Source of the DNA: an uncultured Chloroflexia bacterium
GTDB lineage: Bacteria; Chloroflexota; Limnocylindria; Limnocylindrales; CSP1-4
Assembly (NCBI GenBank): GCA_963734535.1
Contig: CAVTHS010000005.1
Span: 1-64,000 of the forward strand
Length of the DNA: 64,000 nucleotides
Direction of reading: 5' to 3'
Each line of letters opens with the position of its first letter. Within the stretch, counting starts at the first letter, position 1. The position numbers and the translations under genes are program-made. The notes under the pieces were generated by a model. The model saw only the letters and a program-made list of their open reading frames with translations, had not been told where the DNA came from and did not search any database. Below, piece after piece: positions 958-34,280 of the stretch.

Positions 958-3273
958 ATGACGACACAAGCACCGGTTCGGACACCCCGCTCGAAGCCCG
1001 CCACATCCGCGCCGGTGGTGGCGACCCCACCGGAGACGTCGCCGGCGCGGCGGATCCCCGACCCCGCCGCGGACCCGCGGTCGGTGCCCCGGGTGGATGC
1101 GGTTCCCAAGCTGCTCGGCGTCACCCGGTACACGGACGACTTCGTGGTCCCGGGGGCATGGCACGGCAGCACGGTTCGGGCAACCGAGCCGCACGCCCGG
1201 CTGCTCGGGATCGACCGCGACCCGGACTTCGACTGGAGCCGGGTGGTCGTGCTCACCGCCGCCGATGTGCCCGGCGAGAACGTCATCCACCTCATGAAGG
1301 ACGACCAGCCCGTCCTCGCCGCGGACGAGATCTGCCACATCGGCGAGCCGGTCGCCCTGGTCGCGGCCCCCACCCTTGCGCTGGCGCACGCCGCGCGCGA
1401 CCACATCCGGCTCCGCACGGAGCCGCTGCCGGCCGTCACCGAGATGCTCGCGTCCGACCACGTCTTCACCGACTACACGATCGCCCGGGGCGACCTGGAG
1501 GCGGGCTTCGCCGAGGCGGACCTGGTCGTCGAGGGAACCTACCGGGTCGGCCACCAGGAGCAGCTGTACATCGAGACCCAGGGCATGATCGCCGTACCCC
1601 GGCCGGACGGCGGCGTCACGGTGCATGGCTCGCTGCAGTGCCCGTACTACGTGCACGCCGCCATGAAGCGCGCGCTCGGCCTCGACGCCGAGCAGTGTGT
1701 GGTCGTCCAGGAGGACACCGGCGGCGCCTTCGGCGGCAAGGAGGAGTTCCCGTCGGGGCTCGCCATCCACGCCGCCATGCTGGCCCTGGCGGTCGGGCGC
1801 CCGGTCCGCCTGATCTACGACCGCCACGAGGACATCTCGGTCACCACCAAGCGCCATCCGGCGGTGGTCACCCACCGCACCGGCGTCACGCGTGATGGCC
1901 GGCTGGTCGCCCAGGACATCGACGTCACCTTCGACGCGGGCGCCTACGCGACGCTCTCGTCGGTCGTGCTCTCCCGCGGGACCCTGCATGCGGGCGGCCC
2001 GTATGCCTGCCCGAACGTGCGCATCCGCTCGCGCGCGGTACAGACGCACACGCCGCCCACCGGTGCCTTCCGCGGCTTCGGCGCACCCCAGACCGAGTTC
2101 GCGGCGGAGATGCAGGTCAACCGGATCGCGGAGGCGCTCGCGATCTCGCCGGCAGAGCTGCGGGCACGCTGGGCATACCAGGTCGGCGACCAGACGCCGA
2201 CCCAGCAGGTGCTGCACGAGAGCGTCTCGGCCCGCGAGACCCTCGCGGCGGCCCTCGAGGCCGGCGATTTCGAGGCGCGGCGGAGCGCGTTCGCCGCCGC
2301 CCGCACCGTTGACCGCCTGGCGGGCGGGACCCGAAGCGCACCCGGGATCGGCGTCGCCATGGGCTGGCACGGAGCCGGCTTCACGGGCGGCGGCGAGACG
2401 TACCTCGCCAGCATCGCCGCGGTGGAGCTGACGGCAGACGGTCGCGTCTGCGCCATCTCCGACCAGACGGAGATGGGCCAGGGGATGCGGACCGTGTTCG
2501 CCCAGATCGTGGCGGAGCGGCTCGGGATCCCGTTCGAGGACGTGGATGTCGTGCGCCAGGACACGTCGGTCGTCCCCAACAGCGGTCCGACCGTCGCCTC
2601 GCGCTCCACGATGGTCGTCGGGGGCCTCCTGGCGCTCGCGGCCGATCGGCTCCGCGCCACGGTCGAGGAACGGTCCCCCGGATCGTTCGCCGCGACGTAC
2701 GTCGACGACGCCCGGACCCACGGCGCCCTTCGCTTCGACGAGCAGTTCACCGGCTACCCGAACATCACGTGGGACGACGCGACGTACGTCGGCGACGCCT
2801 ACCCGGCGTTTTCCTGGGCTGCCGCCACGGTCGAGGTCGAGGTGGACCTCGACACCGGCGAGGTGGCAGTCCGGCATGTCGTCTCCGCGGACGACTGCGG
2901 CACGGTCATCAACCCCCTGATGGCCGCGGGCCAGGTGGAGGGCGGCTCGCTCCAGGCGGTCGGCTACGCCACCATCGAGGAGATGAAGCTGAAGGACGGC
3001 CGATACCTGAACAACCGGCTCTCCAAGTACCTGATTCCCACCTCGCTCGATGCGCCGAAGATCACTGCCGTCCTGGTCGAGAACCCGTTCTCGAGCGCGC
3101 CGCACGGCGCCAAGGGGATCGGCGAGCTGCCGATGGACGTGGTGGCACCGGCGGTGGTCGCCGCCATCCACGACGCCACCGGCGTCTGGATCCACGAGCT
3201 GCCTGCCACGCCGGAGCGGATCCTCGCGGCGCTCGACGCGGCCGACCGCGACGCTCAGGAGGTCCGGTCGTGA
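958..3273 (+). CDS. Xanthine dehydrogenase family molybdopterin-binding subunit
   Basis: QEQLYIE, GGAFGGKE, GAFRGFGAPQ, EMGQG, GPTVASR, GQVEGG and GAKGIGE motifs. Confidence 0.93.
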   Translation: MTTQAPVRTPRSKPATSAPVVATPPETSPARRIPDPAADPRSVPRVDAVPKLLGVTRYTDDFVVPGAWHGSTVRATEPHARLLGIDRDPDFDWSRVVVLTAADVPGENVIHLMKDDQPVLAADEICHIGEPVALVAAPTLALAHAARDHIRLRTEPLPAVTEMLASDHVFTDYTIARGDLEAGFAEADLVVEGTYRVGHQEQLYIETQGMIAVPRPDGGVTVHGSLQCPYYVHAAMKRALGLDAEQCVVVQEDTGGAFGGKEEFPSGLAIHAAMLALAVGRPVRLIYDRHEDISVTTKRHPAVVTHRTGVTRDGRLVAQDIDVTFDAGAYATLSSVVLSRGTLHAGGPYACPNVRIRSRAVQTHTPPTGAFRGFGAPQTEFAAEMQVNRIAEALAISPAELRARWAYQVGDQTPTQQVLHESVSARETLAAALEAGDFEARRSAFAAARTVDRLAGGTRSAPGIGVAMGWHGAGFTGGGETYLASIAAVELTADGRVCAISDQTEMGQGMRTVFAQIVAERLGIPFEDVDVVRQDTSVVPNSGPTVASRSTMVVGGLLALAADRLRATVEERSPGSFAATYVDDARTHGALRFDEQFTGYPNITWDDATYVGDAYPAFSWAAATVEVEVDLDTGEVAVRHVVSADDCGTVINPLMAAGQVEGGSLQAVGYATIEEMKLKDGRYLNNRLSKYLIPTSLDAPKITAVLVENPFSSAPHGAKGIGELPMDVVAPAVVAAIHDATGVWIHELPATPERILAALDAADRDAQEVRS

Positions 3274-4688
3274 CGATCACCGCGCCCAGCCGGGCGACGC
3301 GCTTCATGGTCAACGGGAATCCGGTCGAGGTCGGTGGGCCCGGCGGGCTGCGGCTGCTGGATGCGCTGCGCATCGATCTCGGCATGACCGGGACCAAGGA
3401 AGGCTGCGGCGAGGGGGAGTGCGGCGCCTGCACGGTCCTGGTCGACGGGATGCCCGTGGTCAGCTGCCTGGTCCCGGTGGGACAGGTGGAAGGTCGCGAC
3501 GTTCGCACCGTCGAAGGACTCGCCGAGGACGGGCGGCTGGACCCGATCCAGGCCGCCTTCGTGGACTCGGGCGGCGTGCAATGCGGCATCTGCACGCCCG
3601 GCATCCTGATGTCGGCGCGGGCATTCCTCGACTCCGGCGCCGAACCCACGGACGCCGCCATCCGCGAGGTCATCGCCGGCAACCTCTGCCGGTGCACCGG
3701 GTACATGAAGATCATCGACGCGATCGCGCTGGCGGCCACGACGGCGCCGCGCGAGGTGCGGGGCGGCCTGCCGCAGGTGCCGCGCGAGCTTGCCGGGCCG
3801 GCGACCCGGCCGAACGTCGAGCCGGGGTCGGATGTTCGCGTGGGGCCGGCCTTCGTGCGTCCGACCACGCTCGGGGAGGCGTATGCCCTCCTCGCCGAAG
3901 GCCCCTGGCGACCGATCGCGGGCGGCACGGACATCATGGTCCAGCTCGCCGACGACCCTGCCGCGGCCGGCGCGGCGCTCCTGGACCTGACCGGGATCGA
4001 GGAGCTGCGCGGGATCCGGGTCGACGGCGATCGACTCGTGATCGGCGCCACGGCGACCTACGGGGACCTGCGCCGGTCGGACCTCGTGGCCGCCCATCTC
4101 CCCGCGCTGGCGGAGATGTCGGAGGTGTTCGGGGCGACGCAGCTCCAGAACATGGCAACGCTGGGCGGCAACGTCGTGAACGCGTCACCGGCGGGCGACA
4201 GCCTGCCGCTGATCCTGGCGACGGAGGCCGTCCTCGTGGTCGGCGGGGCGGCCGGCGAGCGGGCGATCCCCGCGGCGGCGTTCTTCACCGGCTACCGGAC
4301 AACGGCGCTCCAGCCGGGCGAGCTGCTCCTGCGGATCGAGTTCCCGCTCGATTCGCGGCGACAGCTGCGCTACCGCAAGATCGGCACGCGGCGAGCGCTG
4401 GCGCTCGCCAAGGTCGCGCTGGCGGTCACGTGGCGGCAGGCGGATGGCTCGGCCGCCTGGCACGATGTCCGCGTCGCGGTCGGCACGGTCACCGACGTCC
4501 CGATCCGGGCGCCGAGCGCGGAGGCCGTCCTCGAGGGCGCGGTCGCGAGCCACGACGTGGCCGACCGGGCCGCTGCGGCCATCCTGCTGGACATCCACCC
4601 GCGCGATGGCCTGCGGTCCACGGCGGCCTATCGCCGTTCGGCCACGTCACGCGTGCTCCGGCGGATGATCCTCGACGCGATGGGGTAG
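3270..4688 (+). CDS. Fused 2x[2Fe-2S] + FAD-binding subunit of a molybdenum hydroxylase
   Basis: GTG start overlaps the upstream TGA. GTKEGCGEGECGACT, QCGICTPG and GNLCRCTGY are followed by the FAD motifs IAGGTD and ATLGGN...ASPAGD. Confidence 0.9.
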   Translation: MTITAPSRATRFMVNGNPVEVGGPGGLRLLDALRIDLGMTGTKEGCGEGECGACTVLVDGMPVVSCLVPVGQVEGRDVRTVEGLAEDGRLDPIQAAFVDSGGVQCGICTPGILMSARAFLDSGAEPTDAAIREVIAGNLCRCTGYMKIIDAIALAATTAPREVRGGLPQVPRELAGPATRPNVEPGSDVRVGPAFVRPTTLGEAYALLAEGPWRPIAGGTDIMVQLADDPAAAGAALLDLTGIEELRGIRVDGDRLVIGATATYGDLRRSDLVAAHLPALAEMSEVFGATQLQNMATLGGNVVNASPAGDSLPLILATEAVLVVGGAAGERAIPAAAFFTGYRTTALQPGELLLRIEFPLDSRRQLRYRKIGTRRALALAKVALAVTWRQADGSAAWHDVRVAVGTVTDVPIRAPSAEAVLEGAVASHDVADRAAAAILLDIHPRDGLRSTAAYRRSATSRVLRRMILDAMG

Positions 4689-4851
4689 GCGGCGAGGGTC
4701 CCTCCGTTCCGCTTCACTTTGGCCCTGAGGGATCCGCGCCGAGGTCTTCGTGCCAACGAGAGCTGCCTCGAGTCGGGCCCGACAGGGGCGTGGCGTCACG
4801 CGAGCCCCGCCCCTGACCTTCAGCTGACCCGGATGGTGTTGGGCTCCCTGC

Positions 4852-6264
4852 CTATGGCTTGCCGGGCCAGGTGCCGGAGAAGTCGCTGGCCCGGTAGTAG
4901 CCCGAGTCGATCAGGACAGCCTGGACGTTGTCCCGGGTGACCGTGACGTTCGGGGACGTCTGGGCCGGGACGTCGATGGTGCCGTTGTTGAAGCTGGTGG
5001 TCGCGACGGGCGTGCCGCCCTTGAGGAAGGCCAGGGCCCCCGCAACGGCGGCGTTGACCCGCAGGCGGGGGTCCTTGAAGACGGTCATCCCCTGCCTGCC
5101 GTCGATGATGGCCTGGATCGACGCCTTGTCGGCGTCCTGGCCCGTAACGTAGGCCTTCGTGACGGCGGGGTCTGCCGAGAATGTCGCCGAGATGGCGAGG
5201 GCGGTGACGTCGTTCGGAGCCAGGATGAAGACGGTGCCCTTGTCGGCCGCCGCGGCGGCCATCAGGTTGGACTGCGCCAGGTACCTGGCGGTATTGGCGT
5301 CCCAGCTGGTGGTGATCTGACCGATGATCCTGCCCTGCTGGTCGCGGGTCAGGCTGGGATTGCCCTGCAGGGCCACGGCCAGGCTCGAGTTTCGGATCAC
5401 GAACGTGCCGTCGGCGATCCGCGGCTGGAGCTTCTCCCAGGCGCCTTCGAGGAAGGCGAAGGAGCCGTTGTCGGCGGGATTGCCGGCGTAGAGGTACAGG
5501 TTGTTGCCCTTGGTCGCGCCGGCCTTCTCGATCAGGTACTGAGCCTGGGCCGCGCCGATCGCGGGGTTGTCGAAGGTCACGATGTAGTCGACCGCGACGG
5601 TGTCGAGGACCAGGCGGTCGTTGGCAATGACGCTGACGCCGGCGGCCCTGGCCTCATCGACGGCCACCGCGGCCGCTGCGCTGTCCTGCGCCGTGAGGAT
5701 CAGGACCTTGATGCCCCGTCCGATCAGCGCCCTGACATCCGCCGCTTCGGTGGCGGAGTCCTGGCTGAACAGGATCTGGGCGCCATAGCCCGACGCCTTG
5801 AGCGCGGCCTGGAACCGGGCCCCTTCCGGGAGCCAGCTCGACGGGACGACGATGCCGATCGGTGTCGAGGAGCCCGGCGAGGCGGTCGGCGCCACCGAGG
5901 GGCTCGGCGACGCGAGGATCGAGGGTGCTGGCGTTGCTGCAGCGGGAGAGGCGACGACGGCAGGTGGCGTGGCAGGCGCGACGCTCGGCGCGGGCGGGGC
6001 CGGCAGCAGGTGCAGGTCCCGCAGGGCGCCAGAGGCGATGAGGCCCATCCCCGCCACCGCGAGAAGGGCAGCGACGACGAGGATCCAGGCGACCCCGAGG
6101 CTCGGCAGTCTCCAGGCCGGCCGGGGAACAAGACGCCGCACACGCGGCACGCTCGTCGCCAGCGAGTCGGTCAGTCGAGCCGCGTTGATCTCGGTGGGGG
6201 CCGCTTCGACGTACCCACGGACGGCCGCCTCCAGGCGCTGCTCGAAGATCTCGCGGTCAGTCAT
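4852..6264 (-). CDS. Putative anti-sigma factor: short cytoplasmic N-terminus, TM helix, Pro/Ala/Ser linker, ChvE/XylF-like sugar-binding domain
   Basis: ATG overlaps the sigma stop (ATGACTGA). Reads MTDREIFEQRLEAAVR..., then TM LGVAWILVVAALLAVAGMGLIA, then periplasmic sugar-binding motifs (DRLV, TFDN, APND, VTGQDAD, QGMTVFKD, LIDSGYY). Confidence 0.75.
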   Translation of the reverse strand: MTDREIFEQRLEAAVRGYVEAAPTEINAARLTDSLATSVPRVRRLVPRPAWRLPSLGVAWILVVAALLAVAGMGLIASGALRDLHLLPAPPAPSVAPATPPAVVASPAAATPAPSILASPSPSVAPTASPGSSTPIGIVVPSSWLPEGARFQAALKASGYGAQILFSQDSATEAADVRALIGRGIKVLILTAQDSAAAAVAVDEARAAGVSVIANDRLVLDTVAVDYIVTFDNPAIGAAQAQYLIEKAGATKGNNLYLYAGNPADNGSFAFLEGAWEKLQPRIADGTFVIRNSSLAVALQGNPSLTRDQQGRIIGQITTSWDANTARYLAQSNLMAAAAADKGTVFILAPNDVTALAISATFSADPAVTKAYVTGQDADKASIQAIIDGRQGMTVFKDPRLRVNAAVAGALAFLKGGTPVATTSFNNGTIDVPAQTSPNVTVTRDNVQAVLIDSGYYRASDFSGTWPGKP

Positions 6265-6826
6265 GCTCGAGCTCCGCGCGGAGTCGGTCGAGGAGCCGAT
6301 CGAGGCGGCTTCGAACGCCGGACGCCGACATGCCCAGCACGGCGCCGATCTCGGCGGAATCGAGTCCGGCGGCATAGCGCAGGCCCACGAGGGTCCGTTC
6401 CTCAGGCTTGAGCCGCGCCAGCACGCTGGCCATGTCCAGCGCAGCCGGCGAGGTAAACGGGTCGGGAGCTGCCACGTGCTCTTCCGCGAACGCGAGGCGG
6501 ACGGCGCCCGAATGGCGCTGCTGCCGGAGGAGCTGGCGGGCCTCGTTGGCGGTCACCGAGAGCAGCCAGGCGCGGATGCGCTCCGGATCCCGCAGGGTCC
6601 CGAGACGGCTCCAGGCGATGGCCCAGGCGGACTGCACGGCATCGTCGGTGAGGTCGCGATTCCCGCCACAGACCACGAAGGCAAGGCGCGCCATGTCGGC
6701 GTGGAATGCCTCGACGAGGCGAGTGAAGGCCGCCCTGTCGCCGGCGGCGGCGCGCGGGACGAGGGCGACGATCGCCGCGTCGACCGGCTTCCGCGGCTCA
6801 CGGCTCGTGGCGGGACGGTCCGTCAC
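6257..6826 (-). CDS. ECF RNA polymerase sigma factor (start approximate)
   Basis: Region 2 AAAGDRAAF...DDAVQSAW...LRDPERIRAWLLSVTANEAR; region 4 LKPEERTLVGLRY...EIGAVLGMSASGVRSRLDR. Confidence 0.88.
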   Translation of the reverse strand: MTDRPATSREPRKPVDAAIVALVPRAAAGDRAAFTRLVEAFHADMARLAFVVCGGNRDLTDDAVQSAWAIAWSRLGTLRDPERIRAWLLSVTANEARQLLRQQRHSGAVRLAFAEEHVAAPDPFTSPAALDMASVLARLKPEERTLVGLRYAAGLDSAEIGAVLGMSASGVRSRLDRLLDRLRAELEHD

Positions 6827-7610
6827 CGCCACGGGGCGACCCACGGGCACAGGGACCGGGCGGGCGACGAACGGAGCAGGGCGTCCCACCGCCACGACGA
6901 GACCGCCGCCGAACGCGGCAGTCGGGCGCGGGCTCGCGAGGACCCACGCGCGGCAGGGCTGAGACACACGCGCTCGCTCCCTTCGGGCGGATCGTCGTGA
7001 GACTGTCGCCTGGGCGACAGAGGCGTTCGGCCCGTTCAGCGCCGTTGCGGGCAAGGTGGTCATCGGGCCCGTGGCTAGAGAGCTCACGCACGTCAGATGC
7101 AGGAGCACCTGGATCTGTCCCGCGTCCGTGGCCCTCCCGGGGGTTCGCGTCCGCACGAGGAAGTGCCGCTGTCCTTGACACAGCCCCGGCCGGATGCCGG
7201 ATGCCCGATGCCCTCGATGCCAGCGGCACTCGCGGCCGGCGACGGCGGTGTCGCCGGTCGGCGCCCCAGGGTGCCCTCATCCCTCGCGAACCTGCGACAT
7301 TGCACGTGATGTCAACACAACGGTCCGTCGAGGCACGTTCGTCGGTGGTGTCGCTGGCCCGCGTGCCTCCCGACACGAGCTGGGGTGGTCGGGAGCACTG
7401 AATTCGTGATCGGAACCGACGCCGCACCGGCATCCTGGTCGTCACTGCAGGGCGTGCGGCCGCGAGCAAGGCGTGTCAGGCCCCGATGGTGTTCACTTCA
7501 CGTGCGATTCCGCGCGGAACGCATCGCCGGGCCCCGCCGCGATCGTGCCGGGCAACGCCGCCACGCCCGGTGTCATGCTGAGCCGCCGATCGCGCGGCAC
7601 CCGCCCGACG

Positions 7611-11046
<3,436 letters not shown>

Positions 11047-11162
11047 GGTGATCCTCGCGCGTCAGGGTCGTGCGTGAATGGCGTCAGGCGGCCCGGCAGG
11101 TCGCATCGGCAAGCCGGGCCACATGCAGCGGGCGGCCACGTCCCGCGCGGCCACGCCGCGCG

Positions 11163-14947: not shown

Positions 14948-14958
14948 CGGGCGTTCTC

Positions 14959-18983: not shown

Positions 18984-19064
18984 CAACAGGCCGAATGGCA
19001 CTTCGGACGGTGCGTCGGCCTGTGGCACAGTCCAAACGCATGGATGTCAGACGACTAGCGTCTG
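18984..19064 (+). promoter_or_regulatory. Composite ~85-bp regulatory element, copy 1 (upstream of the aminotransferase-transketolase-PLP operon)
   Basis: CAACAGGCCGAATGGCAC...TGTGGCACAGT...GGATGTCAGACGACTAGCGTCTG aligns with 30809-30894(-) and 31217-31300(+). Confidence 0.8.
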
Positions 19065-19135
19065 AGCCGGGAGCGGACCGGAGCCGTGCCGCGCACGCGG
19101 TCCCGGCAAACCTGAACCCCCTGGAGGCGTCAGAG

Positions 19136-20311: not shown

Positions 20312-20340
20312 CGACCGGAAGCAACGAAGGCGGCAGAGGG

Positions 20341-22728: not shown

Positions 22729-22790
22729 CCTCGGACCCGCTCATGGCCATTACCCACATCCAGCAGCCAGAACGTCCGGAGGAGCACCCC

Positions 22791-25681: not shown

Positions 25682-27263
25682 CGTCCGATTCGTCGGCCGG
25701 GGCGGGGGCGTCTGGGCGCACCCCGGCCATCATCATGCCGATCTCCTCGCGAGTGGCCGTCCGCGGGTCCGCCGAGCCGATGATCGTCCCCTCGTACATC
25801 ACGAGGATGCGGTCCGAGATGGTCATGACCTCGTCGAGATCCTCGGAGATGATCACCGTCGCGGTACCACTGTCGCGTTGCGCGACGAGGCGCTGGTGGA
25901 TGTACAGCGAAGCGGACACGTCGATTCCCCGCGTCGGTTGGGCGACCAGGAGGACGTCGGGCTGGCTCGAGAGCTCCCGGGCCATGATCAGCTTCTGGAT
26001 GTTGCCGCCGGACAGGCTCCGCACCGGCGTCTCCAGGTTCGGCGTCTTCACGTTGAACGCGGCAACCAGCTCGTCGCAGTGCCGGCGGATGGCCCGGGTT
26101 CGCAGGAATCCGAAGCGGCAGAACGCGCGGCTGCCGTAGTCCACCAGCAGGAGGTTCTCGCCGACGCTGAAGTCGGCGACGACGCCGTCCCGCATGCGCT
26201 CCTCCGGCACATACCCGAGTCCCGCCGACCGGATCGCGGCAGGGCCGTGTCCCGCCAGCTCGGCCCCGTTCAGCATGATCGAGCCGCTCGTAGGGGGCCG
26301 GAGCCCGGCGATCGCCTCGGCGAGCTCCCGTTGGCCGTTGCCCGCGACCCCGGCGATCCCCACGAGCTCGCCCGAGCGGACCTCGAAGCTGACGCCGCCG
26401 ACGGCCTCGGTTCCCCGATCGGCCTCGACGCGGAGATCAGTCACGACGAGCCGGCTGGCGCCGGCGACACCCCTCGGCGGAGGCTCCTCGGCAGCCACGT
26501 GGTGCCCGACCATCATCTCCACGAGCCGCTCGCGGGTCGCCTCGGCGGCGGGCAGCGTGCCGACCACCCGGCCGTTGCGAAGCACGGTGATGCGGTCCGA
26601 CAGGTCCAGCACCTCGTGGACCTTGTGCGAGATGAAGACGAGGCCGCGCCCGCTCCTGGTCATCTGGCGCAGGACGGCAAAGAGGTCCTTCACCTCCCGC
26701 GGTGTCAGGACAGCCGTCGGCTCGTCGAGCACCAGCAGCTCCACGTCGCGATAGAGCGCCTTGATGATCTCCACGCGCTGCCGCTCGCCGACGGAAAGCT
26801 GCCAGACGAGGGCCCGCGGGTCAACCCGGAGACCGTACGTCTCCGAGAGCTCGTTGATGCGCGCGGAGACCGTCTCGAGGCCGGTCAGCGGCCCGCGCGT
26901 GGACCGGCTGCCGAGCGCGACGTTCTCGGCGACGGTGAGCGTGTCCACCAGCATGAAGTGCTGGTGGATCATCCCGATCCCATGTCGGATCGCGCTCGAG
27001 GGCGAGCCGATCGCGACCCGGTGACCGTTGATCCTGATCTCGCCCTCGTCCGGCCGGTAGAGCCCGTAGAGCACGCGCATGAGCGTGCTCTTCCCGGCGC
27101 CGTTCTCGCCAAAAAGCGTGTGGACCTCTCCGGCCCGGACGTCGAAGTCGACCGCGGCGTTGGCGACCACCCCGGGAAAGCGCTTGGTGATCCCGCGCAT
27201 CTCCAGGATCGGGACCCCGGCAACGCCGGTCGCGTCCCCCGGGGTGGTCGCCGCCACGGTCAT
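25662..27263 (-). CDS. Nucleoside/sugar (CUT2) ABC transporter ATP-binding protein
   Basis: [39 protein letters not shown]; two ATPase domains. Confidence 0.93.
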
Positions 27264-27284
27264 CGTTCCTGACTTACCCGTGGA

Positions 27285-28379
27285 TCACTGCGGAACCGTG
27301 ACGGACCCGTCGGTGATCCCCTTGATCAGCGAGTCGGCCTTTGCCTTCACCTCGGCGGGCAGGTTGAACCCGGGATTGAAGTCGATCTTCGCTCCACCGT
27401 TGGCGAGGGTCGCCGTGAAGGTCGTGCCGCCGAGCTTGCCGCCCTGGATGTCGGTGAGGATCTCCCCGACGATCGGGGACCAGTCGTAGACCTGGCTGGA
27501 GACGACGTTGGACTGGGCGAGGGACACCTGCGTCCACTGCGTCCCGAACCACGGAAGATTGTTCGTCTTGGCGACGCCGATCGCCCCGACGACGGCCTGC
27601 GCCGTGCCCGTCAGCACGTCGGCCTTGTTGGCGACGAACGTCGTCGCGGCCGCGGACATCAGGCTGACGTCGCTGAAGGAACCAGTGTAGACGGGGATGC
27701 AGCTGATCGAGGACGCCACGGACTTGGCGCCCGCACAGAACCCATCGACGTAGAGCTTGGCATCACCGACGGCGATCGGGCCGATGACCCCCAGCACCTT
27801 CGACTTGCTGAGCATCGCCGCCATCGCGCCCTGGACGTAGCCGCCTTCGTTCGAGTTCACCTGGTAGGCAAACACGTTCGGGAGATCGTAGGTGGATCCC
27901 GCGGTGCCCCAGGCGAACGAGACGTTCGGGAACTTGGGCGCCAGCTGCTGGATCGTCGATCCGTACTGGGACCCGTGGGCGACGATCAGGTTGAAGCCCT
28001 GCGTGGCGTAGGTCTGGATCACGTTCGCGGCGGTTGCCACCACGAACTGGTTGTCGGAGACGGCGATCTCCAGGTTGTACTTCCCCTTGAGCGAGTTGAG
28101 CGCCTCGACCATCGACTGGGTGAAGGCAAGGTCATTGACCGCGCTCGGCGCGATCAGGGCCACCTTGAGCGTGGTAGCGGCGGCGCTCGGGCTGGGCGCG
28201 GTCGACGGGGCTGCGGCGGCGCTCGGGCTGGGCGCGGTCGACGGGGCTGCGGCGGCGCTCGGGCTGGGCGCGGTCGAGGCGGGCGCGGGGGTGCTGCTGC
28301 TGCCACAGGAGGCGGCGACCAGCGCCACCAGCACGGCGGGCAGGATGAGCGAGAGCCTGTGGTCTGGGTGTCTATGCAT
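27285..28379 (-). CDS. BMP-family ABC substrate-binding lipoprotein (purine nucleoside type)
   Basis: Lipobox VAASC; NDLAFTQS, LIVAHGSQY, EGGYVQGAMAA, YTGSFSD. Confidence 0.88.
   Translation of the reverse strand: MHRHPDHRLSLILPAVLVALVAASCGSSSTPAPASTAPSPSAAAAPSTAPSPSAAAAPSTAPSPSAAATTLKVALIAPSAVNDLAFTQSMVEALNSLKGKYNLEIAVSDNQFVVATAANVIQTYATQGFNLIVAHGSQYGSTIQQLAPKFPNVSFAWGTAGSTYDLPNVFAYQVNSNEGGYVQGAMAAMLSKSKVLGVIGPIAVGDAKLYVDGFCAGAKSVASSISCIPVYTGSFSDVSLMSAAATTFVANKADVLTGTAQAVVGAIGVAKTNNLPWFGTQWTQVSLAQSNVVSSQVYDWSPIVGEILTDIQGGKLGGTTFTATLANGGAKIDFNPGFNLPAEVKAKADSLIKGITDGSVTVPQ
28177..28277 (+). repeat. 36-bp tandem repeat (~2.8 copies) encoding the linker APSTAPSPSAAA
   Basis: GCGGCGGCGCTCGGGCTGGGCGCGGTCGACGGGGCT repeated in frame within the BMP gene. 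Confidence 0.9.
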
Positions 28380-28459
28380 CGTGATCTCCTTCGGAGGGAT
28401 CCTGGGTCGGGTTCGCGCTTCCGAGCGCTGGGGCAGTGGGGACGGGCACTCGATTCGCG

Positions 28460-29392
28460 TCAACCCTCCCTCTCGTATGGTCTGCCAAGAGCGGCCGGCT
28501 GCCGGAACCGACGGGCGAGGAAGAGCAGCGCCAGGACCGTGATGACCGCGGGCGCGGTCGCAGCGAGGTCGGATGCGTTGAGGGGAATGATCCCGAGCGA
28601 CTTCCAGGTGAGGATGACCACCCCGACGAGCCCGTACAGCAGCGCCCCGCCCATGACCCCCACCGGTCGCCACGCGCCGAAATAGACGAGCGCAACGGCA
28701 ATGAACCCCTCGGCCTGGGTCAGGTTCACCTGGAAGATTCCGCCGTACATGAGGAGGCTCGCGCCGGCGAGTCCCGAAAAGGTGGACCCGATGATCAGGG
28801 TGGACCAGCGAATCCGGGCGACGCTGACGCCAAGGCTGTCCGCAGCGGCCGGGTTCTCCCCCACCGCCCGGATCTTCAGCCCGTAGGTCGTGCGGTTGAG
28901 GACGAAGGAGACGACGGGGACCAGCAGGAAGGCCAGGTAGACGAGCAGGCTCTGCCGGAAGAACATCCCGCCGATCACAGGGACGCCCTCGAGGAGCGGG
29001 ATCCCGACCGGCGGCAGCGTGGCGATCGGCAGCGGCGTGCCGACGAGCTTCTGGAAGAGCAGCGCGCTGAAGCCGAGGCCGAAGAGGTAGACCCCGATGC
29101 CGCTGATGCCCTGTTCCGCCTTGAGCGTCACGCTCACGAGGGCCGTGACCACGCCCATCACCGTGCCCGTGGCCGCGCCCGCAAGGACGGCCAGGATGAG
29201 GTTGCCCGTCTTCAGCGCCGTGTAATACGTGGCGAAGGCGGCCAGGAGCATGATCCCGTCGACGCCGAGGTTGATGACCCCGCTTCGCTGGCCGATGGTC
29301 TCGCCGAGCGCGGCAAGCAGGAACGGCGTCGCGAGCGCGATCCCGGATGCGACGGTGACCGTGAGGACGTCGACCGTGAAGAACTGGTTCAT
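28460..29392 (-). CDS. Nucleoside ABC transporter permease
   Basis: LAALGETIGQRSGVINLGVDG, RAVGENPAAADSLG, GFIAVALVYFGAWRP. Confidence 0.9.
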   Translation of the reverse strand: MNQFFTVDVLTVTVASGIALATPFLLAALGETIGQRSGVINLGVDGIMLLAAFATYYTALKTGNLILAVLAGAATGTVMGVVTALVSVTLKAEQGISGIGVYLFGLGFSALLFQKLVGTPLPIATLPPVGIPLLEGVPVIGGMFFRQSLLVYLAFLLVPVVSFVLNRTTYGLKIRAVGENPAAADSLGVSVARIRWSTLIIGSTFSGLAGASLLMYGGIFQVNLTQAEGFIAVALVYFGAWRPVGVMGGALLYGLVGVVILTWKSLGIIPLNASDLAATAPAVITVLALLFLARRFRQPAALGRPYEREG

Positions 29393-30594
29393 TCGCCGCC
29401 TCGTCCATCGGCGATCGGAAGCGACGTGCTGTCGGGCGGGCGCGGCGGGCGGGCGGCTCGAGGGCCCGCGAGCGTGATCGTCCGGGCGCGCGCGCGCCGG
29501 CGCAGGTACTCGAGCGAGACGACAAGGACGACGACGATCCCGCTGAGGGCGGTGACGAGGTCGGAGGGCACGCCGGTGGCGACCTGGAGCGCCGAGCCAC
29601 CCACGATGAGACCACCGAAGAAGAACGCCGAGAAGATGGTCCAGAGCGGATTGAGGCCGCCGAAAAGCGCGACAACGATGCCGTTGAAGCCGGCGGACCC
29701 CGTGAACCCGGTCAGGCTCCCATCCGTCACCATCCGGTGCGAGATGCTGCCGAAGACCAGGATCGCGCCGGCGATCCCGCACATCGCCCCGCTCAGGGTC
29801 ATCGCCATCGTGATCGTCCGTTTCACGGGCATGCCGGCATACGCCGAGGCACTCCGCGAGAGGCCGACGCTCCGGATCTGGAACCCGAAGCTGGTGCGCC
29901 ATAGCAGGACGTACACGCAGACCGCCACGAGCACCGCGATCGGCACGCCCAGGTGCAGCTGCGTGCCCGGGACCAGGATGGGCAGCTGCGAATTCGGCGA
30001 CAGGATCTTCGTCTCGGGGATGAGACCGCCGACCGAATCCGGCGACTGGTCGACCATTGGCCCGGCCAGCAGGAAGTTCATGACCTGGACGGCGACGAGG
30101 TTGAGCATGATCGTGCTGAGGATCTCGTTGACGTTGTAGTTTGCCTTGAAGATGCCCGGTATGGCGCCCCAGATGGCGCCGCCCGCGGCACCGGCAAGGA
30201 GCACGAGCGGGATCAGGACGACGCTCGGCAGATCGGGGAGCGCGAGGGCGGTCGCCGCCCCAGCCAATCCGCCCATCGCGATCTGGCCCTCGCCGCCGAT
30301 GTTGAAGACGTTGGCCCGGAACGCGATGCAGATCCCGACCCCGACGAGGAGCAGGGGAACCGCCTGGATCGCGGTGCTGCTCAGCGCGTAGCTTCCGCCG
30401 AACGCCCCTTTCAGGAGCGCGACATAGCCGGTGACCGGGTTTGCGCCGAGGACCAGCATCATCACGGCGCCGAGCAGCAGGGCGACGACGAGCGCCGATG
30501 GGATCGCGAACCAACTGAGCAAGAACCGACCCAGATTCGCGCGGCGGTCGGCGACGGTCACGCCCATCAGCCGGTCGGCTTCACGTTCGCTCAT
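29389..30594 (-). CDS. Nucleoside ABC transporter permease
   Basis: FRANVFNIGGEGQ, NEILSTIMLN, GFNGIVVALFGGLNP. Confidence 0.9.
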   Translation of the reverse strand: MSEREADRLMGVTVADRRANLGRFLLSWFAIPSALVVALLLGAVMMLVLGANPVTGYVALLKGAFGGSYALSSTAIQAVPLLLVGVGICIAFRANVFNIGGEGQIAMGGLAGAATALALPDLPSVVLIPLVLLAGAAGGAIWGAIPGIFKANYNVNEILSTIMLNLVAVQVMNFLLAGPMVDQSPDSVGGLIPETKILSPNSQLPILVPGTQLHLGVPIAVLVAVCVYVLLWRTSFGFQIRSVGLSRSASAYAGMPVKRTITMAMTLSGAMCGIAGAILVFGSISHRMVTDGSLTGFTGSAGFNGIVVALFGGLNPLWTIFSAFFFGGLIVGGSALQVATGVPSDLVTALSGIVVVLVVSLEYLRRRARARTITLAGPRAARPPRPPDSTSLPIADGRGGE

Positions 30595-30808
30595 GCCCGC
30601 CCCTGGTGTGACCGGAGAGCAGCTCGCCCCCTCGTCCACAGCTTCCGCGAAGGCGCTGGAAGAACGAGTCCTCGCGGCGACCTCGCGAACAGGGCACGGC
30701 GCGGGTCGCGGATGCGGATGGGTCTCGGATGGCTCGGGCAGCCGAATCTGGGACACGAGATTGGTGCTGGCGAGAAGCGTCGCATCACCGAATTTCTCAC
30801 CCCAGGCG

Positions 30809-30894
30809 CCAGACGCTAGTCATCTGACATCCCCTCCGAGCCTGCATTGTGGCATGGGGCGGCAAGCGGCTCCCCAGTGCCATTCGGCCCGTTG
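30809..30894 (-). promoter_or_regulatory. Composite regulatory element, copy 2 (upstream of the nucleoside ABC operon)
   Basis: Minus strand CAACGGGCCGAATGGCACTGGGGA...TGCCACAATGC...GGATGTCAGATGACTAGCGTCTGG. Confidence 0.8.
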
Positions 30895-31216
30895 TCTCGG
30901 TCGTCGGCGCCGGCGGACGGTCGTCCGAACGGGCAGACCGGCACCGACGGACGCCCGGGTCGAGGCAGGTCCGTGCCCGGCTCGATCGACTGGCCGGGCA
31001 GTCTCGACTGGGGCAGACTCGCCCCGGCCAGCCCCGGCGAGGGCGCGCGCCGTCGCCCACCGGACGCGACGAGACCGTCTCAGGGTCGCGGCTCCTCCCC
31101 GGCGTCCCATTGCGCAGCCGCCGGACCTCCGCGGCGTCATCGGGCGCGAGCACGCGCCCGGCACCGGGCCGTGGTGCCATGGGGTCTCGGCGGCACGGCC
31201 TGGGCGCCATCGGGCG

Positions 31217-31300
31217 CAACGTGCCGAATGGCACTGGGGACGGCGTCGGTGGGCTGTGGCACAATGCGAACAGGGTGGATGTCAGATGACTAGCGTCTGG
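31217..31300 (+). promoter_or_regulatory. Composite regulatory element, copy 3 (upstream of gntR and the carbamoyltransferases)
   Basis: CAACGTGCCGAATGGCACTGGGGA...TGTGGCACAATGC...GGATGTCAGATGACTAGCGTCTGG. Confidence 0.8.
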
Positions 31301-31433
31301 CACCGGGAGTTGCGGATCGTGATGCGACGGCTCTCATCAAGACCAGCATCGTGCGCCGGATCCGGCCGCCCTTCGTGGCCCGCGATGCTGCCACGCGACC
31401 CTGCGGCCGACGACACGGAGACGAGGCGGGTGC

Positions 31434-32252
31434 ATGGTTCGCCGTAACCTGACCCTGGCCCGGCAGGCGGCCCAGGAGGTCATGGAAGGGATCCACTCCG
31501 GGGCACTGGCCGGCGACGACGGCCTGCTGCCGTCGGAAGCCGCGCTCAGCCAGCGGATCGGCGTGAGTCGTGCCACCCTTCGAGAGGCGCTCTCGCAGCT
31601 GGAGCAGGGCGGCTTCATCGTCCGCCGTCATGGGATCGGAACCTTCGTCAGTCCCCGCCACCCCCTCGTGGTGGCCGGGCTCGAGGAGCTCCAGAGCATC
31701 GAAACCCTCGCGCAGCGGACCGGGGTGGAGATCCACATGGGCACGTGCGAGATCCGGGAGCGAGCCGCCGACCCGGGCGAGGCCGAGGCCCTGGAGATCG
31801 CCGCGGGGACGCCGGTTCTCGCCGTCGAACGCGTGATGCTGTCGGGCGATCGTCCGATCGCCTTCCTCATCGACGTGGTCCCGACCGATATCCTGGACGC
31901 CGTGGACCTGGGGGACGCATTCGACGGGTCGGTGCTGGACCTCCTCCTGCGACGCGGCGATCCCCCGCTGAAGCACTCCCACACGGAGCTGGTCGCCGAG
32001 GCGGCGGACAGCGGCCTGGCGAAACGCCTGCGCCTGCGGGTCGGCGACCCGCTTCTCACGTTCACGGCGCGGCTCGTCGCCACGAGTGGGCGGGTCGTGG
32101 ACTACTCGGTCAGCTACTTCAGCCCAGGTCACTTCCGCTTCCATGTCATTCGTCGCGTCAACCAGCTCTCGCCGCAGGTTCCGGAGGTTCCCGGGGCGCG
32201 CGGGCAAGCGGCTGACCTTGTCGTGGCGGCGCCGCTCGAGGCACGCGTATGA
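31434..32252 (+). CDS. GntR family (HutC/UTRA) transcriptional regulator
   Basis: LPSEAALSQRIGVSRATLREAL...RRHGIGTFV winged HTH followed by a UTRA domain. Confidence 0.92.
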   Translation: MVRRNLTLARQAAQEVMEGIHSGALAGDDGLLPSEAALSQRIGVSRATLREALSQLEQGGFIVRRHGIGTFVSPRHPLVVAGLEELQSIETLAQRTGVEIHMGTCEIRERAADPGEAEALEIAAGTPVLAVERVMLSGDRPIAFLIDVVPTDILDAVDLGDAFDGSVLDLLLRRGDPPLKHSHTELVAEAADSGLAKRLRLRVGDPLLTFTARLVATSGRVVDYSVSYFSPGHFRFHVIRRVNQLSPQVPEVPGARGQAADLVVAAPLEARV

Positions 32253-32339
32253 GGCGCGCCGGCGCAGGTGTTCGAGGCCAGAGAAGGGTCGGAAGAATGG
32301 TTCTTTCGGCGATTCCGTTGAACCCATAGAAAGGGGCAC

Positions 32340-33296
32340 ATGATGCGTAGCTTTGCCGGCCGCGACATCCTCTCGCTGAAGGACTTCAGCCGGGACGAGT
32401 ACTTCCGCGTCTTCCAGGTCGCCGACGACCTGCGGCCGTTCGCGCGCGATCGCCGCAACACGGACCTGCTCAAGCACAAGACGCTCCTGACCGCGTTCTA
32501 CCAGCCGAGCACCCGGACGCGGCTCTCCCACGAAGCCGCCATGCATCGCCTCGGCGGCCACGTCCTGGGCTTCTCCGACTCGAAGATGACCCGGGCCGGC
32601 GACTTCTACCAGGAGTCGATCAAGGACACCTTCCACATGCTGGAGTACTACGCCGACGTCATCGCGATCCGGCACTTCCAGCAGGGCGCCCCGGCGGAGG
32701 CGGCGAAGTGGTCGTCCGTGCCGGTCATCAACTGCGGCGACGGCTGGGGCGAGCATCCCACCCAGGTGCTGACCGATCTCTACACGGTCCTCCGCGAGAA
32801 GGGGACGCTCGACGGGCTGACCTACCTGCTGGTCGGCGACATGCGGATGCGGACGATGCACTCGATCCTGTACGCGCTGAGCCAGTTCGACGCCAAGGCG
32901 ATCGTCGTGGGCCCGCCTGACATGAGCCTGCTGCCGGAGTTCAAGGCGGAGATCGACGAGCTCAACGTCGACTACGTCGAGGCGGGCGACGTCCGCGACG
33001 TCATCGGCGAGGCGGACGTGATCTACATGGAGCCCGTCGTCCAGGCCGACTACACGTCATCGCGCGTGGAGCGCGGCGACAAGGTTGGTCTGACCCCGCC
33101 CGAGTACTGCGTCACGCGCGAGCTGCTGCGCGACAAGGGCAAGCGCAGCTCGATCATCCTCCACTCCCTGCCGCGCATGGACGAGCTGCTGCCCGACGTC
33201 GACGCGACGCGCCACCAGCGCTACTGGGCAGAGGCCTTCAACGGCGTCGCGCTCAAGATGTCGCTCCTCAGCCTGATCCTCGGCGCGGCGGAGTAG
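32340..33296 (+). CDS. Aspartate carbamoyltransferase-like protein
   Basis: FYQPSTRTRLS, ESIKDT, IRH, NCGDGWGEHPTQVLTD, VGD, HSLPR. Confidence 0.82.
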   Translation: MMRSFAGRDILSLKDFSRDEYFRVFQVADDLRPFARDRRNTDLLKHKTLLTAFYQPSTRTRLSHEAAMHRLGGHVLGFSDSKMTRAGDFYQESIKDTFHMLEYYADVIAIRHFQQGAPAEAAKWSSVPVINCGDGWGEHPTQVLTDLYTVLREKGTLDGLTYLLVGDMRMRTMHSILYALSQFDAKAIVVGPPDMSLLPEFKAEIDELNVDYVEAGDVRDVIGEADVIYMEPVVQADYTSSRVERGDKVGLTPPEYCVTRELLRDKGKRSSIILHSLPRMDELLPDVDATRHQRYWAEAFNGVALKMSLLSLILGAAE

Positions 33297-33302
33297 GCGG
33301 CC

Positions 33303-34280
33303 ATGCAGACGGACCTTCGCGGCCGCGACCTCATCAGCCTCCAGGAATGGACGAAGGAGGAGATCGACACCGTCCTCGAGGTCGCCCTCCAGCTGAAGCG
33401 CGAGCGGGCGCTCGGGATCCCGCACCCGCTCCTGCGGGATCGCGTCCTGGCCATGCTCTTCTTCTTCTCCTCCACCCGAACGCGCGCCTCGTTCGAGGCG
33501 GGCATGGCCCAGCTGGGCGGCCATGCCCAGTTCATCGAGAGCCGCACCACCCAGATCTCGCATGGCGACACGCCGAAGGAGATCGGCGAGATCCTGGGCC
33601 GCTACAACGACGGGATCGCCATCCGGAACGTCGACTGGGGCGTCGGGAACCAGTACATCCGGGACGTGGCTGCGGCCAGCCGCGTGCCCGTCCTCAACAT
33701 GCAGTGCGACCTGTTCCACCCGCACCAGTCGCTCGCCGACCTGCTCACCATCCACGAGAAGAAGGGCAATCCCCGGGGACGCACGATCGCGATCAGCTGG
33801 GCCTACGCAGCCAGCTACCAGAAGCCGATCAGCGTGCCCGTGGACCTCTCGCTCCTCACGACCCGCTACGGGATGCACGTCCGGCTGGTCCATCCGCCGG
33901 AGTTCAAGCTCCCTGCCGACATCGTCGCGCAGGCGGCGGAGAATGCACGGCGGTCGGGCGGCAGCTTCGAGCTGATGGACGACTTCGACGCCGGCATGGC
34001 GGGCGCGGACGTCGTGTACGCGAAGAGCTGGGGCGCCATGCTCACGGCCAAGGACGAGACCGAGGGCGCCGAGATCGCCAGGAAGTACACGGACTGGATC
34101 ACCGACGAGCGGCGGATCGGCCTCGCGGCCGAGGACGCGATCTACATGCATCCGCTTCCCGCCGACCGCGGCGTCGAGGTGGCCGACGCGGTGATCGATG
34201 GGCCCCACTCGGTGGTCTACGACGAGGCCGAGAACCGGCTCCACGCCCAGAAGGCGGTCATGGCCCTCACGATGCGGTAG
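33303..34280 (+). CDS. YgeW-like carbamoyltransferase (ornithine/aspartate carbamoyltransferase family)
   Basis: SSTRTRASF, QISHGDT, NMQCDLFHPHQ, SWAYAASYQKPISVP (recalls YgeW WAYSPSYGKPLSVP), YAKSW, MHPLPAD. Confidence 0.82.
   Translation: MQTDLRGRDLISLQEWTKEEIDTVLEVALQLKRERALGIPHPLLRDRVLAMLFFFSSTRTRASFEAGMAQLGGHAQFIESRTTQISHGDTPKEIGEILGRYNDGIAIRNVDWGVGNQYIRDVAAASRVPVLNMQCDLFHPHQSLADLLTIHEKKGNPRGRTIAISWAYAASYQKPISVPVDLSLLTTRYGMHVRLVHPPEFKLPADIVAQAAENARRSGGSFELMDDFDAGMAGADVVYAKSWGAMLTAKDETEGAEIARKYTDWITDERRIGLAAEDAIYMHPLPADRGVEVADAVIDGPHSVVYDEAENRLHAQKAVMALTMR

Follow-up and report, generated by a model that had tools for sequence, protein, structure and literature searches.

Positions 958-34280 of contig C5, from a metagenome-assembled genome (MAG) related to Ca. 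Limnocylindrales, form by their gene content a purine-catabolic island. Our analysis centred on the first 64,000 nucleotides of this contig (C5:1-64000, hereafter the window) in a 3.2-Mb, 14-contig assembly whose completeness is 89.9% and contamination 7.1%. We propose, with confidence that is evenly balanced, that the island encodes the reductive (2,8-dioxopurine) pathway of urate degradation with a different, conserved lower half in which both ureido groups would be phosphorolysed. The core of this variant is well supported by conservation, and the chemistry assigned to its lower half is hypothetical. The proposal in its widest form, namely that Chloroflexota and Actinomycetota of soils, in many cases equipped for aerobic life, degrade urate by a fully phosphorolytic version of the gut pathway, with two ATP per urate from two dedicated carbamoyltransferases and a new two-gene pyridoxal phosphate (PLP) enzyme system for the step from diaminopropionate to pyruvate, is one that we put forward tentatively and consider somewhat doubtful.

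The MAG has a GC content of 71%, and 67-75% is reported for the window. Because long open reading frames are mostly spurious at such GC, genes were called by third-position GC (GC3) and then named with Pfam and NCBIfam profiles; these profiles showed that the gene list of an initial annotation of 958-34280, made from the sequence alone, was right (Table 1). That annotation had also assigned the cluster to a high-GC, probably non-gut lineage, in agreement with the names of its relatives (Ca. Limnocylindrales) and with the public runs holding the ygfK stretch, which are soil, permafrost or peat metagenomes wherever they are labelled.

In E. coli, according to the accessible text of Li et al. 2025 (PMC12507026), the pathway begins with the reduction of urate to 2,8-dioxopurine by XdhD-YgfM; YgfK and SsnA then give ureidomethyl-hydantoin together with some 5-ureido-dihydrouracil, and HyuA opens the ring to produce 2,3-diureidopropionate. 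One ureido group is then phosphorolysed by YgeW and the other hydrolysed by YgeY, and diaminopropionate is converted to pyruvate by YgeX. The accessible text of Liu et al. 2025 (bioRxiv 10.1101/2025.04.24.650524) gives the same scheme, places YgeW on the 3-ureido group, and has YgeW and YqeA together make ATP. A commentary (PMC12990295) lists, in the part available, the order of ureido cleavage, the stereochemistry, and the choice between an ancient pathway and a gut adaptation as open questions.

In the pathway that we propose for the island, purines would enter through a BMP-type ATP-binding cassette (ABC) transporter and be brought to urate by guanine and 8-oxoguanine deaminases and a conventional xanthine dehydrogenase (XDH). 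A second molybdenum (Mo) enzyme, YgfK and a short SsnA would carry urate to 2,8-dioxopurine, its dihydro form, and ureidomethyl-hydantoin or 5-ureido-dihydrouracil, and one of two D-hydantoinases encoded elsewhere in the genome would open the hydantoin or dihydrouracil ring to give 2,3-diureidopropionate. A short YgeW-like carbamoyltransferase would phosphorolyse one ureido group, probably the 3-ureido group, while a second carbamoyltransferase, derived from aspartate carbamoyltransferase (ATCase) and here called ATC-like, would phosphorolyse the alpha-N-carbamoyl group of 3-amino-2-ureidopropionate in place of the hydrolase YgeY. Both carbamoyl phosphates would pass to carbamate kinase, for up to two ATP per urate instead of one, and a pair of PLP enzymes, PALP1 and PALP2, would turn 2,3-diaminopropionate into pyruvate and ammonia in place of YgeX.

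The gene set behind this proposal recurs well beyond the genome in which it was noticed. Within 40 kb around ssnA in ten relatives from the same genus, eight carry, in this order, genes for the YgeW-like protein, the ATC-like protein, PALP2 and PALP1, divergent from those for the Mo enzyme, SsnA and YgfK. Carbamate kinase stands beside the YgeW-like gene in three of those eight, and an adenosine deaminase adjoins the module in both relatives that were annotated with Pfam. Only one of the ten (G010) has the longer layout of the window, with its aminotransferase, transketolase-like protein, deaminases and transporter. A pattern scan based on the PALP2 alignment, with one genome per species, returned at least 594 stretches, at least 572 of them confirmed relatives, and the best 80 of these at least 572 PALP2 loci were compared by tblastn with the window proteins. 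Their hosts are Ca. Limnocylindrales, 'Chloroflexia' MAGs, Gaiellales, Thermoleophilia, Acidimicrobiales, Dermatophilaceae, Nocardioides and Streptosporangiaceae, as well as single Binatia, Gemmatimonadales and Pseudomonadota MAGs.

PALP1 lies next to PALP2 in 68 of the 80 loci, an ATC-like gene is present in 56, ssnA or the Mo enzyme in 52, a gene like ygeW or that for ornithine carbamoyltransferase (OTC) in 38 and carbamate kinase in 26. Lower counts were obtained for hydantoinase (13/80), YgfK (9/80), the aminotransferase (7/80) and the transketolase-like protein (6/80). Of the 45 loci flanked by at least 8 kb of sequence on both sides, 30 combine PALP1, ATC-like, and either ssnA or the Mo enzyme; both transferases occur in 28, and carbamate kinase as well in 19. 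Five loci (L068-L072) have GntR, ATC-like, YgeW-like, arcC, Mo enzyme, PALP1 and PALP2 on a single strand. In two actinomycete loci (Gaiellaceae and Nocardioides) and one unclassified MAG, a luciferase-like gene is annotated in place of YgfK after ssnA. The initial annotation had counted the aminotransferase and the transketolase-like enzyme, behind promoter elements shared across the cluster, as parts of a rewired lower half. Co-occurrence with SsnA and the Mo enzyme across genomes bears this out for both PLP enzymes and both carbamoyltransferases, which form a conserved set of replacement candidates. The aminotransferase and the transketolase-like gene, with their low counts, drop out of it, as do the shared promoters (see below). 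These two genes recur beside PALP1 in a few Chloroflexota and one Acidimicrobiales locus (L100), a distribution that marks them as an accessory, lineage-restricted add-on.

The upper half of the pathway is encoded by the genes for the Mo enzyme, SsnA and YgfK, which lie on one strand across 7611-14947 with overlaps or short gaps, as in the single operon of selenium-type XDH, ssnA and ygfK described at the outset. Family matches and comparison with E. coli K-12 both uphold the presence of this half, and the combination of Mo enzyme, dearomatising reductase (YgfK) and SsnA is conserved in 10 of 10 genus relatives. The fused Mo enzyme passes the cut-off of TIGR03311, the 'selenium-dependent XDH' family, and is 27% identical to E. 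coli XdhD across its full length; it scores only 232 bits with the XdhD-type model TIGR03313 (cut-off 1102). Its gene adjoins ssnA in the relatives and in 46 of the 80 PALP2 loci, and the enzyme is predicted to reduce urate to 2,8-dioxopurine. The separate two-subunit XDH at the start of the island is probably the conventional enzyme that takes hypoxanthine and xanthine to urate. Its large subunit reaches 495 bits with the pucD model (cut-off 784) and is found near the cluster in 10/10 relatives; its small subunit, whose GTG start overlaps the large-subunit stop, reaches 316 bits with the xanthine_xdhA model (cut-off 467) and is likewise present in all ten.

Two features of this upper half, a short SsnA and an apparent frameshift in ygfK, could mean decay and in that sense speak against the proposal. 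The SsnA-like protein begins 9 residues ahead of the HxH motif, without the canonical N-terminal ~55 residues, and falls below both SsnA cut-offs (with TIGR03314 it scores 237 bits, under 455, covering the profile from 56 to 340). Yet SsnA is by far its best family, it is 33% identical to residues 54-438 of E. coli SsnA, and its gene occupies the SsnA position. YgfK matches TIGR03315 in two frames, one covering positions 1-289 (322 bits) and the other 408-989 (487 bits), where the cut-off is 835, and its N and C parts are 43% and 32% identical to E. coli YgfK in colinear order. Were the cluster decaying in this organism, with ygfK frameshifted and SsnA truncated, urate would be degraded by the oxidative route, for which a urate oxidase is encoded on contig C11 (287 bits, cut-off 168); that gene lies together with malate synthase A and a hydantoinase/allantoinase-like gene at C11:116410-120383.

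We consider decay very improbable. The frame switch lies near 10190, where alignment with five genus relatives reveals one extra base near 10193. Logan contigs from all four public runs lack that base, showing a gap at 10193 or 10194 when 9800-10600 was compared; the contig from one run (X1) is otherwise nearly identical to the window, and in that run the gapped contig accounts for all of the depth, 15.4 of 15.4. Because none of the four runs has the extra base, the frameshift is very probably a consensus or assembly error in the MAG, and on the strength of the relatives and the public-run contigs we reject both a two-subunit and a pseudogene interpretation of ygfK. GC3 is kept at 0.93-0.94 in the ssnA and ygfK frames. 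Full-length matches to the short SsnA at 81-97% identity fill 23 listed rows from genus genomes, and a search for the family detected it in 29 of 36 genus genomes but in none of 24 genomes of a small-genome sister family. Because it is conserved full-length across the genus, we read the short SsnA as a lineage feature and not as a break. The neighbouring sequence was also considered as a source of the N-terminus. The Mo enzyme carries a C-terminal tail of ~50 residues beyond the end of the TIGR03311 profile (12185-12340, minus strand), which was rejected as the lost N-terminus of SsnA: it is of low complexity, and the SsnA frame upstream of the start is Arg/Pro-rich junk.

Queries with E. coli K-12 proteins (E<=1e-5) found no homologue of HyuA, YgeY or YgeX in the window, just as had been noted initially. 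Genome-wide, this absence extended to YgeY and YgeX. The best match to YgeY (M20) in the 90%-complete genome scores 87 bits against a cut-off of 321.5, the best match to DpaL/YgeX 29 bits against 532, and the E. coli YgeX and YgeY sequences found only weak paralogues outside the window. In five other genomes that carry the PALP genes, among them two complete chromosomes and the isolate Nocardioides taihuensis CGMCC 4.7318, neither YgeX (0/5) nor YgeY (0/5) exceeded its cut-off and D-hydantoinase did in all five. Two D-hydantoinases exceed the TIGR02033 cut-off elsewhere in the window's genome, on contig C8 (560 bits) and contig C11 (441 bits), so the hydantoin-opening step would not have to be rewired. 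The C8 protein is 43% identical to E. coli HyuA and has a pyrimidine-type context, and the C11 protein lies in a uricase-type context. The hydantoinase on C8 sits in a set at C8:247406-250668, where a CN-hydrolase gene, one for a luciferase-like oxidoreductase of the F420 type (TIGR03842, 440 bits) and a dihydropyrimidinase gene stand in a row, with a class III aminotransferase divergent from them; this set looks like one for F420-dependent reductive pyrimidine degradation.

Family scores, motifs and comparison with E. coli confirm the pair of carbamoyltransferases given in the initial annotation, a YgeW-like transcarbamylase and an extra ATCase-like enzyme, and both keep their carbamoyl-phosphate motifs intact. 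The first is the genome's best match to E. coli YgeW, although it scores below the cut-offs of TIGR03316 and NF005538 (161 and 175 bits, against 500 and 453). It has the YgeW motifs 'SWAY..SY.KP.SVP', 'KSW' and 'LQCD..HP.Q', at sites where the genome's own ArgF has 'VGDGNNVAHS' and 'DVWASM', and an alignment that includes ArgF shows 'SWAYAASYQKPISVP', 'YAKSWG' and 'MQCD..HPHQ' to be common to this protein and E. coli YgeW. The second-substrate motifs are thus those of YgeW and not the 'DGNN' and 'DxxxSMG' of OTC. They are conserved in 28 orthologues, the three insertions of YgeW are absent, and the protein reads as a short YgeW.

The ATC-like protein is a paralogue of PyrB and not the housekeeping enzyme. 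A separate pyrB scoring 291-308 bits is present in 16 of 18 genus genomes searched and a cluster-type ATC-like gene scoring 240-255 bits in 17, with both copies in 15; the better-scoring pyrB was not found in the window's incomplete genome or in one other (G030) of these 18. Aligned end to end with a solved ATCase, the ATC-like protein keeps the carbamoyl-phosphate motifs STRTR and HPTQ, has 'EPVVQAD' where the solved enzyme has 'TRIQKER', and has HSLP for HPLP. The altered motifs are near-invariant in 55 orthologues from several phyla. The Arg and Gln of the 'TRIQKER' stretch hold the beta-carboxylate of aspartate; their loss together with the gain of a Glu would fit a substrate with a beta-amino (beta-ammonium) group. 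This pattern suggests 3-amino-2-ureidopropionate as the substrate of the ATC-like enzyme; like the product of the ancestral enzyme, this compound is an N-carbamoyl alpha-amino acid.

The remaining replacement candidates are two PLP enzymes encoded by adjoining genes, neither of which reaches a curated family cut-off. PALP1 has N- and C-terminal extensions and scores 74 bits with the cysK model (cut-off 351). Its predicted structure (pLDDT 94) has cystathionine beta-synthase (CBS) and O-acetylserine sulfhydrylases as top Foldseek matches at E ~1e-13, the Lys of its 'GAHK' motif is invariant (alignment A3), and it matches 2290 proteins of a representative library at E<=1e-3 and 389 at E<=1e-30. 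PALP2, whose start overlaps the PALP1 stop, has a Cys-rich N-terminus and scores 68 bits with the threonine synthase model (cut-off 303). Its predicted structure (pLDDT 79) matches threonine synthases, threonine deaminases and serine racemases best, and its 'GSHKAR' motif is invariant (alignment A2). Both proteins keep the PLP lysine and the Ser/Thr-Gly-Asn carboxylate-binding loop, and what they share with CysK and ThrC is confined to the fold and the PLP-binding motifs. Both are modelled as fold-type II enzymes. In genomes with the upper half but without YgeX, the PALP pair are obvious candidates for the diaminopropionate step, possibly as a racemase and a lyase or as a heteromer. Predictions of a PALP1-PALP2 complex, made without controls, scored 0.00, 0.35 and 0.00 and carry no weight either way.

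The relatives of these two enzymes also leave room for the same pathway with other chemistry in its lower half. A single PLP enzyme, for instance PALP1, might act on albizziin or a related beta-substituted alanine and take off the 3-substituent, through beta-elimination or beta-replacement, releasing urea or carbamate or making another amino acid. Only one carbamoyltransferase would then be catabolic, and the task of the second transferase or PLP enzyme would be stereo-inversion, salvage or a side branch. PALP1 models closest to CysK, CBS and beta-cyanoalanine synthase, which catalyse such beta-replacements and beta-eliminations, and racemases and dehydratases are among the neighbours of PALP2. 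The two transferases are moreover not universal, as the unequal counts of ATC-like (56/80) and YgeW/OTC-like (38/80) genes show, and even in E. coli the order of ureido cleavage and its stereochemistry are listed as open in the accessible part of the commentary (PMC12990295). Set against this are the intact carbamoyl-phosphate motifs in both transferases and their joint presence in 28 of the 45 fully flanked loci, 19 of them with carbamate kinase. On balance we judge this alternative unlikely, while taking it seriously.

Several further observations weigh against the pathway with two phosphorolytic steps and a PALP pair at its end. In none of the ten genus relatives does a hydantoinase lie within 20 kb of ssnA, and one is near in only 13 of the 80 PALP2 loci, so that ring opening must rest on genes in trans or on another route. 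Neither PALP resembles YgeX specifically, to judge from a search in which E. coli YgeX gave no match; no diaminopropionate ammonia-lyase appears among the Foldseek matches listed to rank 50 for either protein; and the proposal does not explain why two PLP enzymes should be needed. The ATC-like protein passes the ATCase equivalog cut-off (TIGR00670), and the role given to its changed residues is putative. The loci come from related genomes, and their counts describe a conserved layout, not independent trials. PALP1 is absent from 12 of the 80, and at least eight of these PALP1-less loci, in Acidimicrobiales/Acidimicrobiaceae records, have no other cluster gene, so the PALP2 family is not exclusive to the pathway.

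These solitary PALP2 genes would also be expected if PALP1, PALP2 and the two carbamoyltransferases were a separate module that lies beside the purine genes through shared regulation or a shared precursor. Such a module could be biosynthetic, for a product derived, for example, from diaminopropionate or a ureido amino acid, or could serve to break down some other nitrogen-rich compound. CysK-like and ThrC-like enzymes are typically biosynthetic, and a transferase still above the ATCase cut-off would suit such a role. The tight and often same-strand link to the Mo enzyme and SsnA, which is seen in Chloroflexota, Actinomycetota and a Binatia MAG, argues otherwise, as do the frequent presence of carbamate kinase inside the module and the lack, in these genomes, of the YgeX and YgeY that the upper half would otherwise need. 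We regard a separate module as quite improbable.

The initial annotation called the cluster anaerobic. COX1 is encoded on contig C7 and urate oxidase on contig C11, so the organism is not an obvious anaerobe on its gene content, and both urate routes may run in it. Profile searches of the window's genome did not find SelD, YqeB or YqeC. SelD exceeds its cut-off in 15 of 18 genus genomes and lies 7-15 kb from argF in seven relatives compared by coordinates; here the true argF (368 bits) and a second carbamate kinase are at C1:46225-48083, and contig C1 ends at 51024, 2.9 kb past argF. Because the contig stops short of the position that SelD has in the relatives, its absence is probably an assembly gap. 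YqeB exceeds its cut-off in only 3 of the 18, and by this measure the selenium-cofactor trait is not general in the genus. In the accessible text of Liu et al. 2025 (bioRxiv 10.1101/2025.04.24.650524), SelD is required and the trait is found in all gut strains.

The other genes of the island are compatible in part with purine supply and regulation. The 8-oxoguanine deaminase would furnish urate to the pathway, and it belongs to a plus-strand run with short gaps that comprises carbamate kinase, 8-oxoguanine deaminase, the aminotransferase, the transketolase-like protein, PALP1 and PALP2. Every NCBIfam transketolase model scores the transketolase-like protein far under cut-off, and its neighbours in the Atlas are clusters of 750-850 aa that bear the name 'transketolase family' and are uncharacterised. 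The ABC transporter spans 25662-30756 on the minus strand; its BMP/PnrA-type protein, which starts with the ATG at 28379 followed by a lipobox-like signal, is likely a nucleoside or purine receptor. The GntR gene precedes ATC-like in loci L068-L072 also. Between ygfK and xdh, here and in one relative (G007), lies a pair of genes for an extracytoplasmic function (ECF) sigma factor and a membrane protein, the former overlapping the start of the latter. The membrane protein has an anti-sigma-like layout (cytoplasmic N-part, one transmembrane helix, Pro/Ala/Ser linker, binding domain), and the pair (4852-7156) may be a ligand-sensing regulator of the cluster.

The promoter elements said to be shared across the cluster did not hold up: the palindrome GTGCCN4GGCAC occurs at chance frequency, with 6 hits against 6.17 expected. 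Its sites are at 7363, 16451, 30877, 31221 and 35170 (and 27604), and five of the six are intergenic and beside cluster operons, though the overall frequency is that of chance. An 11-mer, TGCTCCCGACC, found upstream of both arcC and the sigma gene was rejected, as it is not conserved upstream of arcC in L062, L064 and L065. The 677-bp spacer between permease 2 and GntR (30757-31433) contains three collinear nested inverted-repeat blocks, with arms at ~30762-30894 and 31217-31345 that are 78-96% complementary; these could be mirrored operator/promoter regions of two divergent operons or what remains of an element once inserted here. Just 5' of XDH, an AmmeMemoRadiSam system protein B/Memo-like gene (52-885, plus strand) is probably unrelated to the cluster. 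Just past the cluster, at 35457-39337 on the minus strand, are adjoining genes for a type I (529 bits) and a type III glutamine synthetase, a pair that also follows the cluster in one relative (G005).

Table 1. Genes of the purine-catabolic island, with positions in the window and the family evidence for each
Feature	Position	Strand	Evidence and remarks
XDH, molybdopterin-binding large subunit	958-3273	+	Pfam MoCoBD_1/2, Ald_Xan_dh_C
XDH, small subunit (2Fe-2S + FAD fusion)	3270-4688	+	Fer2, Fer2_2, FAD_binding_5, CO_deh_flav_C
Membrane protein with sugar-type periplasmic binding domain	4852-6264	-	Peripla_BP_4
ECF-type sigma factor, true start uncertain	6257-7156	-	Sigma70_r2/r4; TIGR02937 58 bits, cut-off 42.9
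YgfK-type Fe-S flavoenzyme, predicted isoxanthine reductase	7611-11046	-	TIGR03315 in two frames
Short SsnA-type amidohydrolase, 341 aa	11163-12188	-	NF005540 258 bits, cut-off 444, profile 57-340
Fused 2Fe-2S + molybdopterin enzyme, XdhD/DOPDH kind	12185-14947	-	TIGR03311 948 bits, cut-off 830
Guanine-deaminase-like amidohydrolase	14959-16338	-	TIGR02967 321 bits, under 375; 34% identical to E. coli GuaD
Carbamate kinase	16548-17486	+	TIGR00746 362 bits, cut-off 358; 46% identical to E. coli YqeA
8-Oxoguanine deaminase	17570-18943	+	NF006055 633 bits, cut-off 532; ATG at 17570
Class I/II aminotransferase	18995-20311	+	Aminotran_1_2
Transketolase-like thiamine diphosphate (ThDP) protein, 795 aa	20341-22728	+	Transketolase_N 72 bits
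PALP1, CysK/CBS-like fold-type-II PLP enzyme, 499 aa	22791-24290	+	PALP 33 bits, under 35
PALP2, threonine-synthase/dehydratase-like fold-type-II PLP enzyme, 464 aa	24287-25681	+	PALP 112 bits
ABC transporter ATPase, two cassettes	25662-27263	-	ABC_tran x2
BMP/PnrA-type lipoprotein substrate-binding protein	27285-28379	-	Pfam Bmp 125 bits
ABC permease 1	28460-29392	-	BPD_transp_2
ABC permease 2	29389-30756	-	BPD_transp_2
GntR/HutC-type regulator with UTRA domain	31434-32252	+	GntR, UTRA; directly upstream of the two carbamoyltransferases
ATCase-derived carbamoyltransferase (ATC-like)	32340-33296	+	TIGR00670 248 bits, cut-off 237
Short YgeW-like carbamoyltransferase	33303-34280	+	35% identical to E. 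coli YgeW over 348 aa

Work on gut bacteria established the reductive urate pathway as recently as 2025. Chloroflexota and Actinomycetota lineages from soil, permafrost and peat commonly encode its upper half and combine it with a lower half that is different and conserved. A second phosphorolytic step, if real, would double the substrate-level ATP yield; a preference of the ATC-like enzyme for the alpha-N-carbamoyl substrate, if borne out, would show which ureido group YgeW attacks; and the wide environmental spread, if it holds, would favour an old origin of the gut pathway in soil over an adaptation to the gut. The cluster presents three uncharacterised enzyme families with testable substrates, namely PALP1, PALP2 and the ATCase-derived transferase, and a cultured carrier exists in Nocardioides taihuensis CGMCC 4.7318.

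The initial annotation regarded the cluster as an undescribed variant. SsnA clusters in Chloroflexota and Actinomycetota had already been noted by Li et al. 2025 (PMC12507026), whose accessible text scores neighbours by Pfam only, with PF00185 as 'YgeW' and PF00291 as 'YgeX'; it makes no mention of a pair of transferases, a pair of PLP enzymes or an absence of YgeY. Nor did we find a literature description of a lower half that combines two carbamoyltransferases with two PLP enzymes other than DpaL and has neither YgeY nor YgeX, in a search that covered accessible article text, while the supplements of the pathway papers may hold more. The upper pathway is already known, and the lower half appears to be new.

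Compared with the E. coli cluster (ygeW-ygeX-ygeY-hyuA-yqeA ... ygfK-ssnA-ygfM-xdhD), the window has homologues of YgfK, SsnA, XdhD, YqeA, YgeW and GuaD and shares the adjacency of the ygfK, ssnA and Mo enzyme genes. It lacks YgeX, YgeY, YgfM and a cluster HyuA, and adds the ATCase-derived transferase and two unrelated PLP enzymes. Its SsnA is without the N-terminal ~55 residues, its YgeW homologue is without the YgeW insertions, and its Mo enzyme is of the TIGR03311 type and not the XdhD type. It also belongs to a high-GC soil lineage whose genome encodes COX1 and uricase. Swapped steps have a precedent in C. difficile, where, in the accessible text of Li et al. 2025 (PMC12507026), UacX (PydA-like) and UacY (D-aminoacylase-like) stand in for the reductase and the ureido-cleaving enzyme. 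That variant exchanges phosphorolysis for hydrolysis and forms no carbamoyl phosphate, whereas the window appears to do the opposite, with YgeY giving way to a second transferase. The same text mentions Chloroflexota SsnA clusters with a putative F420-dependent luciferase-like reductase; these belong to the same phyla, and the luciferase-like gene that follows ssnA in the Gaiellaceae, Nocardioides and unclassified-MAG loci represents this variant. The window's genus uses YgfK instead.

The closest energetic parallel is the arginine deiminase pathway, in which catabolic OTC and carbamate kinase carry out the same phosphorolysis of a ureido group to carbamoyl phosphate and thence substrate-level ATP; Liu et al. 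2025 (bioRxiv 10.1101/2025.04.24.650524) liken YgeW and YqeA to it in their accessible text. Here the substrates would be ureido derivatives of diaminopropionate, and the true OTC and a second carbamate kinase are encoded on another contig. PyrB (TIGR00670), finally, is the family into which the ATC-like protein still falls by score and by its retained STRTR and HPTQ motifs, and automatic naming by the equivalog cut-off would label it aspartate carbamoyltransferase. It differs from PyrB in having 'EPVVQAD' for 'TRxQxER' and HSLP for HPLP, and in being a second copy that resides in a catabolic cluster with carbamate kinase.

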